A program made the position numbers and the translations under genes. Shown piece after piece: positions 56,300 through 64,000 of a DNA stretch of 64,000 bases. Position 1 is the stretch's first letter. Each line of letters begins with the position of its first letter. The DNA comes from a virus. Under the pieces are notes generated by a model. It did not search any database. It worked only from the letters and a program-made list of their open reading frames with translations, and was not told the DNA's origin. The stretch lies in the UHGV virus genome UHGV-1351772; one strand, 5' to 3'.

Positions 56300-56599
56300 T
56301 TAACGATTCTTGGTCGGAAGAAGAAGACGGCGGTTGTGCCAGAATTCAAAGTAGGTCTCTACCCACTCAGTAACTTCTTCCGCATTTTCAGGATAAGGGT
56401 TTTCAATAGACTCGAAACGGCGTTTATTACGCTCGTCAATTTCCAGTTCCATAACACGTTTACCGCTCGGGCACGACGTTACGCTCAAGACTTTTCCAAC
56501 TTGAATAGGTTTACCGTTCTGACCTTTTTTAACAGGGGTCAGATAAATTTCCGGTTCTAAACGCGGTGTGGTGTTTCGAGTCAGTAATTTGATTTTCAT
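56300..56599 (-). CDS. hypothetical protein (99 aa)
   Basis: six-frame ORF. Confidence 0.5.
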   Translation of the reverse strand: MKIKLLTRNTTPRLEPEIYLTPVKKGQNGKPIQVGKVLSVTSCPSGKRVMELEIDERNKRRFESIENPYPENAEEVTEWVETYFEFWHNRRLLLPTKNR

Positions 56600-56697
56600 C
56601 GAGCTTTACCTTTATGGAAGAGTCTCGGTCATAAGGTTTGGGTGAACTGTAAAAAGACTTTACTATGTAACCCTGACTTATAATCCGAGGTTTTAGA

Positions 56698-57486
56698 ATG
56701 AATGTAAATCCACTTGCAGCGTTATCTAGCTTCGCCGCTAAAGCGTCTGCAATCTTACCGAAAGGGTTTAGTGGCCCTCAACAAGAGATTGCATTAACCA
56801 CTTATGACGAGATGTCGGACGTTTCCAAGTGGATGCAACAAGAAAAATTCCTACACTTTGCGGGAATGTTGGTTATCGTTCCACCTGGGTTTAATACCTA
56901 CGTGATGGATCACTTGAACCGCTTAGAATCTGTATGGAGTTCACTACAAAACATCTATACGGGTATTCTGCTACCGGTCGATAAACAACTTTCGGCCCTT
57001 ACACATGATGTGGGGGTACTGTCATTACCGATTGGTTTCCGTTACAAAAACGTTAATTTACCGTTACGTAATGTTAACCCGAAAGACCTGGTTAACTTAT
57101 TAGCGAAATCGTACACTAATAACGTTATTGACCAGCGACCAATTGAGAAGACGTACCACAGCGCGTCTGAGATTGACGTTGCGTTCAATCGTGCTAAAGC
57201 CCTGAACGTTGAAATTACGAAACGTTTACGGACGAATATCGACAAGTCAATCGAGTCCATTCGCACTACGTCAGAAATCTTGTCCGAACAAAACATTCAT
57301 CCGAATGTAGCAAAAGAACTGACGATGATGTTAGATTTTGCATCCGATTGGGTGGAGCTGTTTGGTCTGTTCATGAAACAGGTTAACGAGTTAATCGAAT
57401 GCCTGAACGTTACTGCCGAACGCTTAAAAGCGCTTAAGGCAAACAAAAATAAAAAAGTAAAGTTACCCCTAGACCGTGTGGTCTAG
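56698..57486 (+). CDS. hypothetical protein (262 aa) on plus strand
   Basis: ORF with GAGG RBS; stop lies inside a 13-bp hairpin terminator. Confidence 0.5.
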   Translation: MNVNPLAALSSFAAKASAILPKGFSGPQQEIALTTYDEMSDVSKWMQQEKFLHFAGMLVIVPPGFNTYVMDHLNRLESVWSSLQNIYTGILLPVDKQLSALTHDVGVLSLPIGFRYKNVNLPLRNVNPKDLVNLLAKSYTNNVIDQRPIEKTYHSASEIDVAFNRAKALNVEITKRLRTNIDKSIESIRTTSEILSEQNIHPNVAKELTMMLDFASDWVELFGLFMKQVNELIECLNVTAERLKALKANKNKKVKLPLDRVV

Positions 57487-57492
57487 GGGTAA
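57463..57492. terminator. bidirectional intrinsic terminator
   Basis: 13-bp perfect stem ttacccctagacc-gtgt-ggtctaggggtaa followed by T-rich tract. Confidence 0.5.
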
Positions 57493-57497
57493 ACTAT

Positions 57498-58397
57498 TTA
57501 TTTCCCACGATAAAATCCAGAAATGTAACTCGGCGCTATCCATCGCCATTCGCGCCAGCGCATTTCTGACATCTTACCACACCATACACGCTTCCAATGC
57601 GCACGACGGATATGTGCGGCGCAATAAATCGCCAAACAAACCTCGTGTCCTTCCTTGCGTTGCTGTTCTATATCTTCCCATTGTACCGGACTTACATCTA
57701 AAACGACTGCTTCACTACGTGGGCGAATCTCTGTATCGGGAACATAACGAATGGTCCTTCCGCGAAATTCTTTCTTCTCACGTTCAGTACGTTTAATTCG
57801 TGACGAAAGGTATAGTCCGATATAGACAGCGTCGAGTAGTCGTTGATTCTCCTTAACCGAAATAAGGAGCGGCTTTAGCTCGACGAAATCATCTTTACTT
57901 TTATCGATTTTGTAAATCTCAAACTCCATGTATACCGATTCTTCACGTTCTTCGCATGACATCACAAAGAGAACTTCTTCGCCTTCGTAAAGACGTCTTC
58001 CGATAAATAACGTGATTGGACTTTCGTCGAGATTTACAGTAACCGAGAAAGTAAATGAAGGGATGGTTTCTATCCAGAAGTACGGGATGTTTTTTAGTCT
58101 CTCAGTTTTTGCTAAGAGTGCCATCAGTTCTTCATCCGAGATGATTTCAACAGCAGCGTATTGCCATCCTAGTCCCAGGGACTGCTTAATCAGTCTGGGA
58201 ATCTGTTCGGTAACGCCATACTCTCGATAGGTCGGATCTTTAACTGGCATAAACGTTACGGGTATTTGACGTTTATGCTCGTTAATGAACCGAATAAAGC
58301 GGCACTGATCTAATCCGTGAATTGTTTGGTGTGCCTTTTCTATTTGTTCGCTCATGCGTCTTAGCGCTTTCCCGTAAAGTCTATTATTCGTTGTCAT
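57498..58397 (-). CDS. hypothetical protein sharing a C-terminal AAHIRRAHW module with the upstream gene; possible tyrosine-recombinase-like fold
   Basis: C-terminal CAAHIRRAHWKRVW...W...Y; start ATG 58397 with AGGAG RBS (ORF extends to 58553). Confidence 0.55.
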   Translation of the reverse strand: MTTNNRLYGKALRRMSEQIEKAHQTIHGLDQCRFIRFINEHKRQIPVTFMPVKDPTYREYGVTEQIPRLIKQSLGLGWQYAAVEIISDEELMALLAKTERLKNIPYFWIETIPSFTFSVTVNLDESPITLFIGRRLYEGEEVLFVMSCEEREESVYMEFEIYKIDKSKDDFVELKPLLISVKENQRLLDAVYIGLYLSSRIKRTEREKKEFRGRTIRYVPDTEIRPRSEAVVLDVSPVQWEDIEQQRKEGHEVCLAIYCAAHIRRAHWKRVWCGKMSEMRWREWRWIAPSYISGFYRGK

Positions 58398-58422
58398 TTT
58401 AATACTCCTAAACACTTTTAGC

Positions 58423-59349
58423 TTAATTGTGGGGTACGTAGCCACGGACAAATGTAGGTGGAATCCAACAAAGTTTTCTCTTTCTTTCACCATTTCTAGG
58501 GCCGACCCAATATCTGCGCCAGTGAGCGCGACGGATGTGGGCAGCCTTAGCATGTTTGATACCCTGCATGGTTTTCAAGTCAGTGTTAAACCCTTTTAGA
58601 TAATTCACTTGTCCTGGCGTGATATCTATCTTAACATCGCGTTCACGAGGTTTAACGTCGTAGCTAATACTACCGTTCTTTTTGATTTCTTTGAACTTAA
58701 TATCATTAAAAGACTCCCTGTAATTGGGCGGGATTAGCGTACACAGAAATATCATCGAAGTAGCGGCTTTGGCCAGAGATAACCATAGCATCTTTTCTTG
58801 TTCGTTCTCCACACCGTCGGCATAGTCGATTTCCACAAGCCCGTTTCCTGCGCTACGAAGCTCTAACGAACAAGTGGCAATTGTGGTAACGCCTTCTGTT
58901 AACCCGTAATCAGTATTTGTAGCAATTATAATAAACCTTCTCTTCCCGTTTTTTCGATAGCCGAGAAAGAAAGTCTCATCCTCTTTACCTACGTCGATTG
59001 CTACAGTCCAAGTAGGTATAAAGTCCAACCATTCTTCAGGGAATTTACTGGGCATCTCAGTCTCGAAAACAAGTTCTCTAAGTGCTTGGTTGGATATTAA
59101 GGAAGCACCACCGTATAGCCATCCAATTGCCAATGTTTGAGCGTGAAGGGAACGGGGATCTTTGAGACCTAACTCAGCGTCGTAAGGTATAAAGGCATTG
59201 GTTAAATGGTTACGATTCTTTTTTATCCATTTCGAGACAGGATTTTCCTTTATTCGGTTTTCTTCCATGACATTTTCAAGATGCTGAGACCCCATTTGTC
59301 TAAGGCAGTCTTTAATACCTTTTACTTTTTTACTTTTGTACAAATACAT
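58423..59349 (-). CDS. hypothetical protein with C-terminal AAHIRRAHW module; possible tyrosine-recombinase-like fold
   Basis: C-terminal KAAHIRRAHWRRYWVG...LCW...VRGY; AGGAG RBS 8 nt upstream of ATG. Confidence 0.6.
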   Translation of the reverse strand: MYLYKSKKVKGIKDCLRQMGSQHLENVMEENRIKENPVSKWIKKNRNHLTNAFIPYDAELGLKDPRSLHAQTLAIGWLYGGASLISNQALRELVFETEMPSKFPEEWLDFIPTWTVAIDVGKEDETFFLGYRKNGKRRFIIIATNTDYGLTEGVTTIATCSLELRSAGNGLVEIDYADGVENEQEKMLWLSLAKAATSMIFLCTLIPPNYRESFNDIKFKEIKKNGSISYDVKPRERDVKIDITPGQVNYLKGFNTDLKTMQGIKHAKAAHIRRAHWRRYWVGPRNGERKRKLCWIPPTFVRGYVPHN

Positions 59350-59408
59350 GGTTTATTCTCCTAAAATGGTTAAAAATAAAGTAACCCTAGCCGAAGCTAG
59401 GGTGTCTA

Positions 59409-59894
59409 TTAATCGATTTGGACGTAGTTCGGATAATTGGCTTTTAACCACTCCCACAACTGATATGCAAGTTGACTTTGATCGGCACTGATAAGAGCTA
59501 CTATTTCAAGATAAACGCTTTCATTACTCCAAATCTGGCTATAAAAGCGTCGCCATTCAGGAGCAGTGTAGGGTACTATTACGTCAGGCATGTACCCGTT
59601 GTGCCAGCCATTAACTATCGAACGTAGGGTTTCGATACGGATGTCGTAAAACCGACGTCTGATAGAAGTCCATGTAATAGGCCCTGGCTGATCGAAGAAA
59701 TTGTCCAGATTCATTAGTAATGTCGCACGATATCTCGCAACGATAACGCCAGCTGCCTGTGAAGCTATCCAAACAGCGTCCACTGTTTTTGGAGCTAACA
59801 AGTTACGTATCGACTGTTCCATGCGATCGCAGTGGTTCAGAAACTCATGGACAATGTCGCTATTAGAGAGATTGATAATTGCATTTACGTTCAT
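59409..59894 (-). CDS. hypothetical protein (161 aa)
   Basis: six-frame ORF. Confidence 0.5.
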   Translation of the reverse strand: MNVNAIINLSNSDIVHEFLNHCDRMEQSIRNLLAPKTVDAVWIASQAAGVIVARYRATLLMNLDNFFDQPGPITWTSIRRRFYDIRIETLRSIVNGWHNGYMPDVIVPYTAPEWRRFYSQIWSNESVYLEIVALISADQSQLAYQLWEWLKANYPNYVQID

Positions 59895-59895
59895 T

Positions 59896-60420
59896 TTATT
59901 GTCCTAAAATTGGGGAGAGTTTGTCTGCGGTGTTTAACAACGCTTTTGTAATTTCGTGGTTGGTCTCTTTTAGGATGGCGCAACAGAGAGTGGTATAAAC
60001 CTCGATTGCTAACGCGATTTCTTGTTCAGTCAGGCACGGTTCGGTACCGTCAATCCCGTAACGTTGCGCCGCATATTCAATTTCAAGTTTCAAACGTTTT
60101 CGTAGTGCCTCATCGTTAGTTAAACGCGTACACGCCCGATCGAAACGTCTATTGTAAGCCTCGATCTTGTGGACAATTTCGCGTCGCAGTTGGTCGACAT
60201 TTACGTTATCATCAAGAGTGATGGTGACGTTGTCAACTAAACAGTAATGTACTGTGTGTCGTAAGTTGTGTAATGTGGCGACAGTAACGACCCGCTCCTG
60301 ATGGTCGCTAAAGCCATGAGCACCACAGAGCTTGCGTGCAACCGCGCCAGAGATTTTCTCCTCTAACGCTATCGGCGTGGCAATGGTTGTTTTCTTACGA
60401 AGCTGAATTAAAATATCCAC
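59896..60420 (-). CDS. hypothetical protein (174 aa)
   Basis: six-frame ORF. Confidence 0.5.
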   Translation of the reverse strand: MDILIQLRKKTTIATPIALEEKISGAVARKLCGAHGFSDHQERVVTVATLHNLRHTVHYCLVDNVTITLDDNVNVDQLRREIVHKIEAYNRRFDRACTRLTNDEALRKRLKLEIEYAAQRYGIDGTEPCLTEQEIALAIEVYTTLCCAILKETNHEITKALLNTADKLSPILGQ

Positions 60421-60422
60421 GA

Positions 60423-60965
60423 TTATACTCCTTTAGGTTGACCGTATTTTGATGACAGGTAGATGAGCTCGGCATGGCAGATTTTCTCAACTAACCCGAG
60501 TGTTTCAAGGAAAATATCCCGGATACGGGACATTGTTTCGTTGGTAAGAATATCGCTCCAACACGTTGTGTCTATTATATCCGTCGTTGAAGATTGCCGC
60601 TGCAATATGGCGACATACACTTCGTCGAGGGTATCTGGAGCATTATTCTGTAAGTAATGCGCGGCATGTAGAAAGGCTTTCTCAAGAATCAGGTGAATAT
60701 CCGTATCGGGATCAGTTACCCGCACCAAATGTGGGTATGTCATGGCCGAATGGATTTTTCGCTCTAACTGTTCAATGAGATTATTCACCATCGCTTCTGA
60801 ATCCAGGATAGTAATTTCGACCCCACTGTGTTCTTCAGAAATCTTGTTCTCATGTACTGCTATCGCGTCGTGCAGTTCAAACGCAACGCGGCTACGCATC
60901 CCACTTAACAGTTTGTTTAATTTACCCCGTGACTCGCTGAGTGAGAAATCGATAAGTATTTTCAT
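60423..60965 (-). CDS. hypothetical protein (180 aa)
   Basis: six-frame ORF with TAAAGGAG RBS. Confidence 0.5.
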   Translation of the reverse strand: MKILIDFSLSESRGKLNKLLSGMRSRVAFELHDAIAVHENKISEEHSGVEITILDSEAMVNNLIEQLERKIHSAMTYPHLVRVTDPDTDIHLILEKAFLHAAHYLQNNAPDTLDEVYVAILQRQSSTTDIIDTTCWSDILTNETMSRIRDIFLETLGLVEKICHAELIYLSSKYGQPKGV

Positions 60966-61708
60966 TATGCATATTCCTGATAAATTGCCCGACCCCGATC
61001 TTCTCGAATCTGGCAGTAAGTTACAACAGCACCATTAGGGATTTGTGCTCCGCTGTCTTCAAGGTAAATAACGCCCGTAGCTTCACAGAGATAAAACGAC
61101 CACAATCGTGAGATACCAAGCCGTGCGTTCTCGTAGTCACTGAATGGCCAGAAACCACAGTGAAGCTCAACATAGTCTCCACGTTCTATCCCGTAAGCAA
61201 TCAATTCTTTTTCCCACAACGTACATTCGGCGTCGTAAATCGAAAACCAGAAACCAACGAGGTTCTTTGTTTGTTTAACGTTGAGCAAGTCGTTATAAAT
61301 GGGGAAGAGTGCTTTATTGAAACTTTCTAACATCTCTGGAGAGAATAGAAAATTCATGTAGTATTCTAGCCATTGATAAACGGCCTCCCAGACATCTTCA
61401 GAAGAGAAATGTTCGAATACAGCGTCATCGCAATCGTAGTTATCGAAGATCCCTGAGAGATCTATTTCGACTACGCCGCGAAGGTCAAAGTTTCGGTTGG
61501 TATTGACAGCCTCGATAACTTCGGAGATGAGACGAGTAAAGACGATTGTGCAAGCCGTCTGTGCGGTATAAAAGAATTCTCCTTGTACGGTTGACCACTT
61601 CGGGTCCTTCAAGTGTTCATTGAAGTATTGTGGCCAAATTTTATAAAAGATTCCCTCGAACAACGAGGGATTGATACGTTGTAATTGAGGGACATAAACT
61701 TTTAGCAT
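60965..61708 (-). CDS. hypothetical protein (247 aa)
   Basis: six-frame ORF. Confidence 0.55.
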   Translation of the reverse strand: MLKVYVPQLQRINPSLFEGIFYKIWPQYFNEHLKDPKWSTVQGEFFYTAQTACTIVFTRLISEVIEAVNTNRNFDLRGVVEIDLSGIFDNYDCDDAVFEHFSSEDVWEAVYQWLEYYMNFLFSPEMLESFNKALFPIYNDLLNVKQTKNLVGFWFSIYDAECTLWEKELIAYGIERGDYVELHCGFWPFSDYENARLGISRLWSFYLCEATGVIYLEDSGAQIPNGAVVTYCQIREDRGRAIYQEYA

Positions 61709-61744
61709 TTTAATAACTCCAATGGTGTTACACCTGGATAATAT

Positions 61745-62413
61745 CTATCTAAGAATATTTTTAGCGAAAAAAGGATCGACTGTAAACTCCCTCACCTGTG
61801 AGTCATAACCCGAATGTATCTGATCGCTACTGAGCAAATACCCGTCTAAATCGTGTGGAAGAATCCAAGAATCGCCTTGTTTAAAAATACCATAATCTGT
61901 TGTTCCAGAGGAAAAAACGATTTCCTCTGGAGACGAATAGATGTGGCGTAAGGCAAGATCTGACGGCTTTAACACGATTAATCGAACGGGATGTTGACTG
62001 ACTGCCTCTTTAATAAACTGTTCACGATTAAACCAAATTATTTTTTCGGGGTAAGTTTCGAATTCAGCCCATGTCCGCGTGATAACTAATTTGGAAATCT
62101 TTCTCAATTCTTCAGAATGCTCTGCGTAGCCGATACACTCCTTGCGCACTTCATGATTTTCTACCGATGCTGTGAATTTTTGGAATAGGTGTTGTTGGAA
62201 AAAGCCGTTCTCCGGGATATCACAACCCGCGTTGTATAGTGCAATGATCTCCCACAACAACGAAAGAGAAAACACAAATGCTAACTTTTCCACAACTTCC
62301 CAATCTTCGGAGTAAGGGGCTTTAAAGCCCCAATACTGCCGTGCGTTATACATAAAGTGAGTTTGTAAAAACCGAGGGGCTTTTGACAAGACCTCACTAT
62401 AAACGATCAGCAT
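61745..62413 (-). CDS. hypothetical protein (222 aa)
   Basis: six-frame ORF. Confidence 0.5.
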   Translation of the reverse strand: MLIVYSEVLSKAPRFLQTHFMYNARQYWGFKAPYSEDWEVVEKLAFVFSLSLLWEIIALYNAGCDIPENGFFQQHLFQKFTASVENHEVRKECIGYAEHSEELRKISKLVITRTWAEFETYPEKIIWFNREQFIKEAVSQHPVRLIVLKPSDLALRHIYSSPEEIVFSSGTTDYGIFKQGDSWILPHDLDGYLLSSDQIHSGYDSQVREFTVDPFFAKNILR

Positions 62414-63927
62414 TCAAGCTCCTTATCCGTCAATATTCGTTTGTTTGAATAATAGCCGCACCACAACCCATGATATTTTTCCCCAATATAAACCAACGCG
62501 TACTCGATATACTGCCGTTCTGGACGCCGTACCGCCACGTAGAATCGTCCTTCTGGTTCTTTCATACGGTTGATTTCCGTACGCGTCGGTATGTCGATAC
62601 CACGAGTAAGGATAGTTTTAACCTTGTTTTTACTACCAGGGATATGGATGGTTACGTCAAAACCTTTATCTACGTTACGATAAAAATCTTTCTTCGGCTT
62701 ACCTTTCTCATCGTAAAGCAGGTCAGTAATGTCGTTCATCACGACTGAGTTTTTCCCTTCCATGGCATCGCGTAACCAACCTGCAAGCTCATCACGAATC
62801 GTAATGCAGCGATAAGACAATAACGCGGGACGAAGAATTCGTGTAATCGAAAGATCTTCAAACATCCATAGGTTTTTGTCTTCGCTAAAATGCATCCGAT
62901 CGACAGGAATACCGTTACCTGCGGCTTCTGCGAACTTCTTACGTTTTACGAATAAGTTAAAAACAACGGCGATGGGATCAAACTGACGTAAACGGGGCAC
63001 CCCTTCCCACGCTTTCGCAGAGTGGGTATTTACCAACTCGTATACGTTGTTCCATGGTTCTTTGGTAAACATTACGCAGAATTGCGCGTCTGGAATGTAC
63101 TTACCAACGAAGACGATATCGTCCTTCTGTTTTGCATGGTTCCCACCGAACATGTAATAAAGTTTATTACCGTTAACTGTAACAGTGGGATGCGGTTCGT
63201 TCACCATCGGGTAACAGAACTTCGTAACACAGATATCGGGAAAAGCAGACAAATTGACGCCTTCACCAACAACTTCTGGTTGCTGATCTTCCTCAGGCAT
63301 CTCGTCTTTTGACCAATACGGTGTATAGTCTAGCCCATCGCCTCGTGCCGAGATACTTGAACCCTTCCGTGCTAACTCGTCGGCACGCTCGTTTCCATAA
63401 CGTCCTGAATGCCCTTTAATTTTAAGGACACGAACACCTTTCCCTTCTTTCTTTAACCGCTGTTTAACCTCCCACATCCGTTGGATTAATTCCAAGTTCG
63501 CAATGGGCGTACCGTCTGCGCGACGCCAACCGCGTGCAGCCCAACCATCAATCCAATCGTTATACGTGTTGACAACGTAAGATGCGTCGATATAGATAAC
63601 ATAGTTTTTAGCAACGAAAGGTGCATGTTCGAAAACGGTCAGGAAAGCCACGAGTTCTGCAACGTCGGAGTGTGACATTTTTGGTACAGGCACAACACCG
63701 TCAATAAACTCCACAGCTTCTGGTAAAGATGGAAGTTTTTCATCCTTGTTTATCTGGCGGTATCCTGACGTCGTAATCCCCTCGGGAATAGAGGGATGGC
63801 GGTAAACCCGACCATCCTCAATCGTTTCACGATTAAATAAGTATCCATGAATCCCCGCTCCTGTACCGAGCGGGGAGGTCAAATGGCTACCATCCGTGTA
63901 AATTACTGCAACATCAACGTTCTTCAT
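62407..63927 (-). CDS. RNase HI-like domain protein fused to an about 300-aa C-terminal domain of unknown function
   Basis: N-terminal half carries RNase H-type acidic residues in order (YTDGS ... AELVA ... YIDASY ... GHSG..NERADELA). Confidence 0.65.
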   Translation of the reverse strand: MKNVDVAVIYTDGSHLTSPLGTGAGIHGYLFNRETIEDGRVYRHPSIPEGITTSGYRQINKDEKLPSLPEAVEFIDGVVPVPKMSHSDVAELVAFLTVFEHAPFVAKNYVIYIDASYVVNTYNDWIDGWAARGWRRADGTPIANLELIQRMWEVKQRLKKEGKGVRVLKIKGHSGRYGNERADELARKGSSISARGDGLDYTPYWSKDEMPEEDQQPEVVGEGVNLSAFPDICVTKFCYPMVNEPHPTVTVNGNKLYYMFGGNHAKQKDDIVFVGKYIPDAQFCVMFTKEPWNNVYELVNTHSAKAWEGVPRLRQFDPIAVVFNLFVKRKKFAEAAGNGIPVDRMHFSEDKNLWMFEDLSITRILRPALLSYRCITIRDELAGWLRDAMEGKNSVVMNDITDLLYDEKGKPKKDFYRNVDKGFDVTIHIPGSKNKVKTILTRGIDIPTRTEINRMKEPEGRFYVAVRRPERQYIEYALVYIGEKYHGLWCGYYSNKRILTDKELEC

Positions 63928-63929
63928 TC

Positions 63930-64000
63930 TTAATCCCTGGTTAATTGATCACGAATCTGCGGCGCAACATACTCGCCCGTTTTCAGTTCTTCGTGACAGG
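63930..64000 (-). CDS. partial CDS (3' end only; gene starts beyond the window end)
   Basis: open minus-strand frame from the window edge to TAA at 63932..63930, 2 nt before the RNase H-like start. Confidence 0.35.
   Translation of the reverse strand, partial: CHEELKTGEYVAPQIRDQLTRD

Follow-up and report, generated by a model that had tools for sequence, protein, structure and literature searches.

What does an RNase H do when it continues, in the same protein, for about 300 amino acids with no familiar motif? This question is raised by an open reading frame (ORF) at positions 62407-63927 in a stretch of 64,000 nucleotides from the virus genome UHGV-1351772 (the whole of this stretch is called the window below). 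A first, sequence-only reading had proposed the ORF without giving its strand. We confirmed it, and it lies on the minus strand. In its product we observed an RNase H with an intact active site, a flexible linker and a clamp-like fold, together with homology and synteny to gene 155 of phage PhiKZ. We consider it likely that the protein is the ortholog of PhiKZ gp155/Nlp2/Rhc in a nucleus-forming (chimallivirus-type) jumbo phage, where it would be a two-domain replication accessory protein, i.e. a clamp-like polymerase subunit with a tethered RNase H. The fusion is real and biologically important, yet it has recently been explained: the function of its family was published in 2025-2026, and the protein is one of the divergent members. 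We refer to the gene as rhc.

The rhc gene and its RNase H domain

The features of the gene are as follows (aa, amino acids; pLDDT, predicted local distance difference test).

62407-63927, minus strand: complete coding sequence of the RNase H/clamp-like protein (rhc), a single ATG-to-stop ORF of 506 aa plus stop
63343-63927, minus strand: type-1 RNase H domain, aa 1-195
63712-63834, minus strand: family-specific structured insert, aa 32-72 (41 aa), between strands 2 and 3; skipped by the Pfam match, pLDDT ~95
63493-63570, minus strand: basic protrusion ('handle') of E. coli/human-type RNase HI, aa 120-145, NTYNDWIDGWAARGWRRADGTPIANL; aligns to E. coli RNase HI
63892-63894, 63655-63657, 63586-63588, 63409-63411 and 63379-63381, minus strand: catalytic codons for D12, E91, D114, H173 and D183, respectively
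63223-63342, minus strand: acidic flexible linker, aa 196-235, net charge -9, with a disordered core at aa 209-222 (63262-63303)
62410-63222, minus strand: C-terminal domain with a diverged DNA-sliding-clamp fold (C-domain), aa 236-506, net charge +7

A Shine-Dalgarno-like motif (AGGGA) is found 6 nt 5' of the rhc ATG. PHROG 3265 covers the product over its full length (E=5.6e-170), a sequence match that is far beyond chance. All six frames of the window were checked, and no second RNase H and no second clamp-like ORF was seen in it. A scan for sigma-70 promoters returned 12 sites against 17.5 in shuffles (i.e. fewer than in the shuffles), and was uninformative, since PhiKZ-like phages use their own RNA polymerases.

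The N-terminal domain has the RNase H fold. The Pfam family RNase_H (PF00075) matches residues 81-190, scoring 75.8 bits where the cut-off is 25.8 (E=4.9e-21), and PDB chains of the E. coli, Thermus and human RNase HI/H1 match the N-terminal part with E down to 9e-12. The sequence-only reading had seen acidic and His residues of the RNase H type in the expected order, and these matches bear it out: D12, E91, D114, H173 and D183 stand in the canonical order, and are invariant in a 42-sequence alignment except in one N-terminally truncated gene call. The DEDD residues were intact in 171 of 174 near-full-length family members; of the other three, one was a truncated gene call, one had D183N and one was fully degenerate. 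The active site would therefore be under strong purifying selection across the family, even though catalysis is dispensable in the PhiKZ plaque assay. This conservation suggests that RNase H activity matters in nature, if not in that laboratory assay.

The domain is about 195 aa long instead of about 150 because of the 41-aa insert. The Pfam match skips this insert, residues 81-190 corresponding to positions 36-140 of the PF00075 model. We observed the insert in all 42 homologs (33-56 aa long), and it could be aligned in PhiKZ155. The Trp-rich basic protrusion of the E. coli/human-type enzymes is also present (WIDGWAARGWRRADGTPIAN); it aligns to the WIHNW-RGWKTADKKPVKN segment of E. coli RNase HI, and two of its residues, W129 and W134, are nearly invariant in the family. 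The N-terminal domain is thus predicted to be a catalytically competent type-1 RNase H.

A clamp-like C-terminal domain on a flexible linker

We modeled the full-length protein with AlphaFold2 using the 42-sequence alignment. The mean pLDDT was 91.1 and the predicted template-modeling score (pTM) was 0.57, while residues 209-222 had a pLDDT below 50. A high pLDDT together with a low pTM and this disordered stretch indicates two rigid domains on a flexible tether. The linker is between 29 and 74 aa long in different family members.

The sequence-only reading had found no recognizable motif in the C-terminal ~300 aa, and at the level of sequence this was correct. Residues ~200-506 had no significant match in Pfam or among PDB sequences, Pfam scans of 13 family C-domains retrieved no clamp family (PCNA_N/C, DNA_pol3_beta, gp45), and a search of PDB sequences with a C-domain profile gave no clamp chain at E<=10. 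BNR_3, NA-iREase1, Spindlin and AcrIE3 were rejected as noise (E>0.1).

Fold prediction, which the same reading had asked for on residues 200-506, gave the C-domain a diverged sliding-clamp fold. The closest structural matches of the C-domain were ring-forming clamps (9-1-1, gp45, PCNA and beta). The match scores were 6.2 for HUS1, 6.0 for RAD9A, 5.8 for DDC1, 5.5 for the African swine fever virus (ASFV) clamp, 5.3 for T4 gp45, 5.1 for the beta-clamp, 4.9 for PCNA, 4.5 for PF-8 of Kaposi's sarcoma-associated herpesvirus (KSHV) and 4.4 for UL44 of human cytomegalovirus (HCMV); the clamp alignments covered only about 55-60% of the domain (143-173 of 284 residues), with a root-mean-square deviation of about 4 Å. 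In a Foldseek search of BFVD the top matches were the two-domain 'ribonuclease H' proteins of Wellington, Noxifer, RP12 and other jumbo phages (query-normalized TM 0.67-0.94), followed by weaker matches to a phage beta-clamp (E=6e-3) and to herpesvirus accessory factors. The C-domain thus has the fold of a clamp, but it belongs to no clamp family by sequence. As modeled, it is a clamp-derived module, and we do not class it as a sliding clamp. Its most conserved positions (T401, R449, P367, G275, G262, D399, L381, R373, D280, Y476 and K276) are candidates for an interface with DNA or with the polymerase.

The protein is orthologous to PhiKZ gp155

PHIKZ155 (482 aa) aligned with the window protein in BLASTP at E=4e-30 (query 5-494, subject 3-476), and PhiKZ gp155 matched the 42-sequence family profile with an hhalign probability of 100% (E=7.6e-47). 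D102 of the PhiKZ protein, the site of the published catalytic mutant, aligns with D114. Homologs of PhiKZ 147, 149, 152 (UvsX) and 155 were found in the same order and on the same strand between 53.1 and 63.9 kb of the window. The protein also has the architecture of the family, an N-terminal RNase H followed by a flexible linker and a C-terminal clamp-related domain, while the sole other RNase H of PhiKZ, PHIKZ199, is a single-domain protein of 143 aa. By homology and synteny, then, the window protein is an ortholog of PhiKZ gp155 (Nlp2, 'Rhc').

A considerable amount has been published on gp155. According to Gerovac et al. (Nature 2025, PMC12571901), its gene belongs to the core set of nucleus-forming phages, and the protein is a genuine RNase H in vitro. 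It localizes to the phage nucleus. Genome amplification and nucleus maturation both require it, and a catalytic mutant, D102N, still complements (PMC12571901). The protein has been named Nlp2, and its import depends on Imp1/PicA (bioRxiv 2024.03.27.586873). The phage group has been described as having no classical sliding clamp and no primase, with RNase H1 always present (Iyer et al., PMC7824862).

The abstract of a preprint (Basu et al., bioRxiv 1 October 2026, PMC13648687) describes the PhiKZ polymerase as a 1:1 complex of two subunits. According to this abstract, a clamp-derived protein, Rhc, binds the split DNA polymerase as a single subunit, holds the duplex together with the thumb (as seen by cryo-electron microscopy, cryo-EM) and strongly boosts primer extension, and its RNase H domain is flexibly linked and not resolved in the structures. 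The disordered residues 209-222 and the low pTM of our full-length model agree with this description. The abstract gives no gene number; we infer that Rhc is gp155, since no other PhiKZ protein has that architecture. Our fold result reached the clamp conclusion of the preprint independently. What the sequence-only reading had taken for an unassigned C-terminal domain is an RNase H-associated module that is now described in the literature.

Proposed function and the alternatives

By orthology with PhiKZ, the basic, single-copy clamp-fold C-domain would dock on a split B-family DNA polymerase, where the clamp-like domain and the polymerase thumb would hold the nascent duplex. The clamp-like domain would supply processivity with neither a ring nor a loader, in phages (the chimalliviruses) that are otherwise without an identified clamp or clamp loader. 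The RNase H, on its acidic tether of about 40 residues, would clear the template near the polymerase of RNA (primers, or transcripts/R-loops). Polymerase binding, the stimulation of DNA synthesis, nuclear import by PicA/Imp1 and an essential role in genome amplification that is independent of catalysis are presumed here by analogy with the PhiKZ literature.

The sequence-only reading had suggested that such a fusion could target the cleavage of RNA:DNA hybrids to replication forks. In spirit this stands, as the C-domain is clamp-like and the presumed PhiKZ counterpart is reported to dock on the polymerase (abstract of PMC13648687). It falls short in that the essential job is non-catalytic in the published data, D102N being able to complement (PMC12571901). 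For this reason the fusion would be a polymerase accessory subunit that carries an RNase H rather than a targeted RNase H.

The protein could instead be mainly a free-standing RNase HI for the removal of primers or R-loops, its C-domain being only a handle for nuclear import or localization, or a scaffold for nucleus maturation, and not a processivity subunit. We consider this improbable. The strong conservation of the active site (171/174) fits it, and so do the observations that PhiKZ155 is an Imp1/PicA-dependent cargo that forms a punctum at the nuclear periphery (PMC12571901; bioRxiv 2024.03.27.586873) and that its knockdown was described as a block in nucleus maturation (PMC12571901). However, this block is explained by the absence of genome amplification, and the PhiKZ155 D102N protein complements fully although it has no RNase H activity (both PMC12571901). 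The C-domain is also basic and has a DNA-clamp fold, and direct binding to the polymerase with stimulation of primer extension is reported in the preprint abstract (PMC13648687).

Could the C-domain form a canonical closed ring that encircles DNA (a PCNA/gp45-like trimer or a beta-like dimer), making the protein a true sliding clamp with hanging RNase H domains? Its top structural matches, 9-1-1, gp45, PCNA and beta, do form rings, and its size (~270 aa) is that of one two-subdomain protomer of PCNA or gp45. Yet the clamp alignments leave out some 40-45% of the domain at an rmsd of ~4 Å, the cryo-EM data summarized in the preprint abstract show a single Rhc subunit cooperating with the thumb (PMC13648687), and no clamp loader is identified in chimalliviruses (PMC7824862, and PMC13648687 as far as its abstract goes). 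A ring is thus very unlikely. We give almost no credence to a role as an anti-defence nuclease (e.g. one destroying RNA:DNA hybrids used by host immunity), which the sequence-only reading had also raised and which found no support: nothing specific favors it, apart from AcrVA2-like genes 3-5 kb downstream of rhc, and rhc is a core gene with a fixed architecture across all chimallivirus lineages, lies among replication/recombination genes (exonuclease, UvsX), and has a PhiKZ counterpart that works within the phage nucleus and without which the genome is not amplified (PMC12571901).

A polymerase accessory subunit with a tethered RNase H is of wider interest. Nucleus-forming jumbo phages have no identified sliding clamp or primase, which makes their replisome a puzzle, and the Rhc family is the recent answer to the clamp half of it. 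The family gains a divergent member from the window, with 25% identity to PhiKZ155 and 67% to the nearest phage protein in GenBank. Across the family the architecture has been kept, and so have the flexible, acidic tether, the basic domain with its clamp-like fold and the active site of the RNase H. As an annotation, 'ribonuclease H' does not do the protein justice; a more accurate one would be 'DNA polymerase accessory subunit Rhc (RNase H / clamp-like)'.

The phage and the distribution of the family

The window encodes beta subunits of a PhiKZ-type split multisubunit RNA polymerase, a UvsX-like recombinase, a tail sheath, a terminase and a 2,358-aa tail fibre/transglycosylase. In tblastn searches the identity of the rhc product was 67% to gp226 of Erwinia phage Asesino, 64% to the homolog in SPN3US-like Salmonella phages and ~24%, over 77-98% of its length, to the 'ribonuclease' genes of RAY and PhiKZ-like phages. 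Asesino and SPN3US have been found experimentally to be nucleus-forming (review PMC13282480). Homologs of the PhiKZ ChmA, PicA/Imp1, ChmC, DNA polymerase and helicase were looked for in the 64-kb window and not found. A megablast of the 58-64 kb region against 50,697 GenBank phage records gave no match. Three unrelated sequencing runs (ERR14760778, SRR29981068 and ERR975218) had the identical rhc protein and gene neighborhood in their Logan assemblies. The window appears to derive from an undescribed jumbo phage, with ~64-67% protein identity to Asesino/SPN3US-like phages for rhc.

A profile of the C-domain alone, searched against 1.84 billion representatives, retrieved 1,075 proteins at E<=1e-3 (325 of them at E<=1e-30), which are cluster representatives at 50% identity. 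Of the 150 best matches, nearly all were proteins of ~480-560 aa with the domain at the C-terminus.

Some relatives were of unusual length. Four long and distant ones (P0075, P0083, P0156 and P0174; 668-752 aa) carry, whole or in part, an I-TevI-like homing-endonuclease module of ~190 aa in frame before a complete RNase H/clamp protein, the module being a GIY-YIG catalytic domain and/or an I-TevI DNA-binding domain. These are either fusions of a homing endonuclease to rhc or cases of gene-caller read-through from an adjacent homing-endonuclease gene. An intron or intein interrupting the RNase H domain was rejected for the GIY-YIG relatives, because in the alignment the endonuclease module is followed by the whole RNase H/clamp region. 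A fifth long relative, P0097 (707 aa), is extended at the N-terminus by a segment with no assignment. Three short relatives (P0090, P0142 and P0172; 290-337 aa) have the clamp-like domain with no RNase H match in Pfam; each may be a clamp-like protein in its own right or the result of a truncated gene call.

Genes next to rhc

Two genes on the same strand flank rhc directly.

63930-64000, minus strand: final 22 codons and stop codon of the upstream gene, which is truncated at the end of the window; orthologous to Asesino gp225, which tblastn places at 63942-63998
61745-62413, minus strand: downstream gene of 222 aa, phrog_9472; weak homolog of Asesino gp227

Only 2 nt separate the stop of the upstream gene from the rhc ATG. 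Asesino gp225, annotated as 'putative endodeoxyribonuclease', matches PF16473 (the Rv2179c-like DEDD 3'-5' exonuclease family) at E=1.3e-13, and the complete upstream exonuclease gene, of 244 aa, is present on the identical Logan contigs (L007 9264-9998). PhiKZ156, which lies upstream of 155, was tested as a relative of this exonuclease and found to be unrelated. On the other side, the ATG of the downstream gene overlaps the rhc stop (ATGCTGA), an overlap that suggests co-transcription and translational coupling of rhc and the 222-aa gene.

This tight operon with a DEDD exonuclease and a coupled unknown protein allows a further, doubtful proposal. The clamp-like domain might be a 'tool-belt' hub beyond its part as a processivity wedge, the neighbors docking on Rhc or on the polymerase as a lineage-specific module for primer processing or proofreading; the RNase H site, conserved almost throughout the family, might then be required for maturing or removing primers derived from transcripts, in a replisome with no identified primase (in the Erskinevirus/Seoulvirus-like lineage).

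Between rhc and uvsX lie about 6 kb of small genes (56303-62413, minus strand), namely phrog_9472, 8219 and 8379, two genes without a PHROG and an AcrVA2-like pair. The block is common in part to Asesino gp227-237 and absent from PhiKZ. The pair are tandem paralogs at 57498-58397 and 58423-59349 (both minus strand; 299 and 308 aa), 26% identical to each other (E=5e-20), that belong to phrog_6160 and are homologs of Asesino gp235. An ORF listed at 351 aa probably starts at an internal ATG (58397). The paralogs resemble the anti-CRISPR AcrVA2: identical genes on the Logan contigs carry a precomputed Pfam assignment to PF26125, and the only PDB match was AcrVA2 (7ci1, E=5.6e-5), with a C-terminal HIRRxHW..YW.G motif in common. 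A Pfam scan of the pair with a local copy gave no match. They are candidate Cas12a inhibitors in an accessory block between rhc and uvsX. A hairpin with a perfect 13-bp stem and a 4-nt loop (57463-57492), followed by T-runs on both strands, lies between the convergent genes 56698-57486 (plus strand) and 57498-58397 (minus strand), and looks like a bidirectional intrinsic terminator.

Comparison with known systems

The closest known proteins are PhiKZ gp155, PhiPA3 gp176 and the other members of PHROG 3265, which share the two-domain architecture with full-length homology. PhiKZ gp155 also has the catalytic residues, the RNase H insert and the flexible linker, and its gene occupies the same neighborhood relative to UvsX and the virion RNA polymerase subunit genes. 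However, the rhc product is only ~25% identical to PhiKZ155 and 24 aa longer, and its acidic linker is longer (41 aa, where the most divergent homologs in the alignment have 29). Directly upstream of rhc there is a DEDD 3'-5' exonuclease where PhiKZ has gp156, and ~6 kb of lineage-specific genes separate rhc from uvsX where PhiKZ has only gp153-154.

Cellular type-1 RNases H (E. coli RNase HI and the catalytic domain of human RNase H1; PF00075) have neither the 41-aa structured insert between strands 2 and 3 nor the fusion to a 270-aa clamp-like domain. They differ also in that, in PhiKZ155, catalysis is not the essential function.

In contrast to the ring clamps (PCNA, 9-1-1, T4 gp45, bacterial beta and the ASFV clamp), Rhc is reported in the preprint abstract (PMC13648687) as a single subunit, and it has no known clamp-loader partner. 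The C-domain of the rhc product belongs to none of the clamp sequence families, and its fold is heavily embellished. The logic proposed for Rhc, processivity without a ring or a loader, is similar to that of the herpesvirus processivity factors (UL42 of herpes simplex virus (HSV), HCMV UL44 and KSHV PF-8). These are, however, proteins of eukaryotic viruses with no detectable sequence relationship to the rhc product and no RNase H fusion, and their structural similarity to the C-domain is no better than that of the ring-forming clamps.

RNase H2 and FEN1 are primer-removal nucleases that are tethered to PCNA through PIP boxes. By analogy, the rhc product would follow the same logic, an RNA-removing nuclease held at the replisome by a clamp-fold protein; its tether, however, is a covalent fusion and not a peptide motif, and its nuclease is of type 1 and not type 2.
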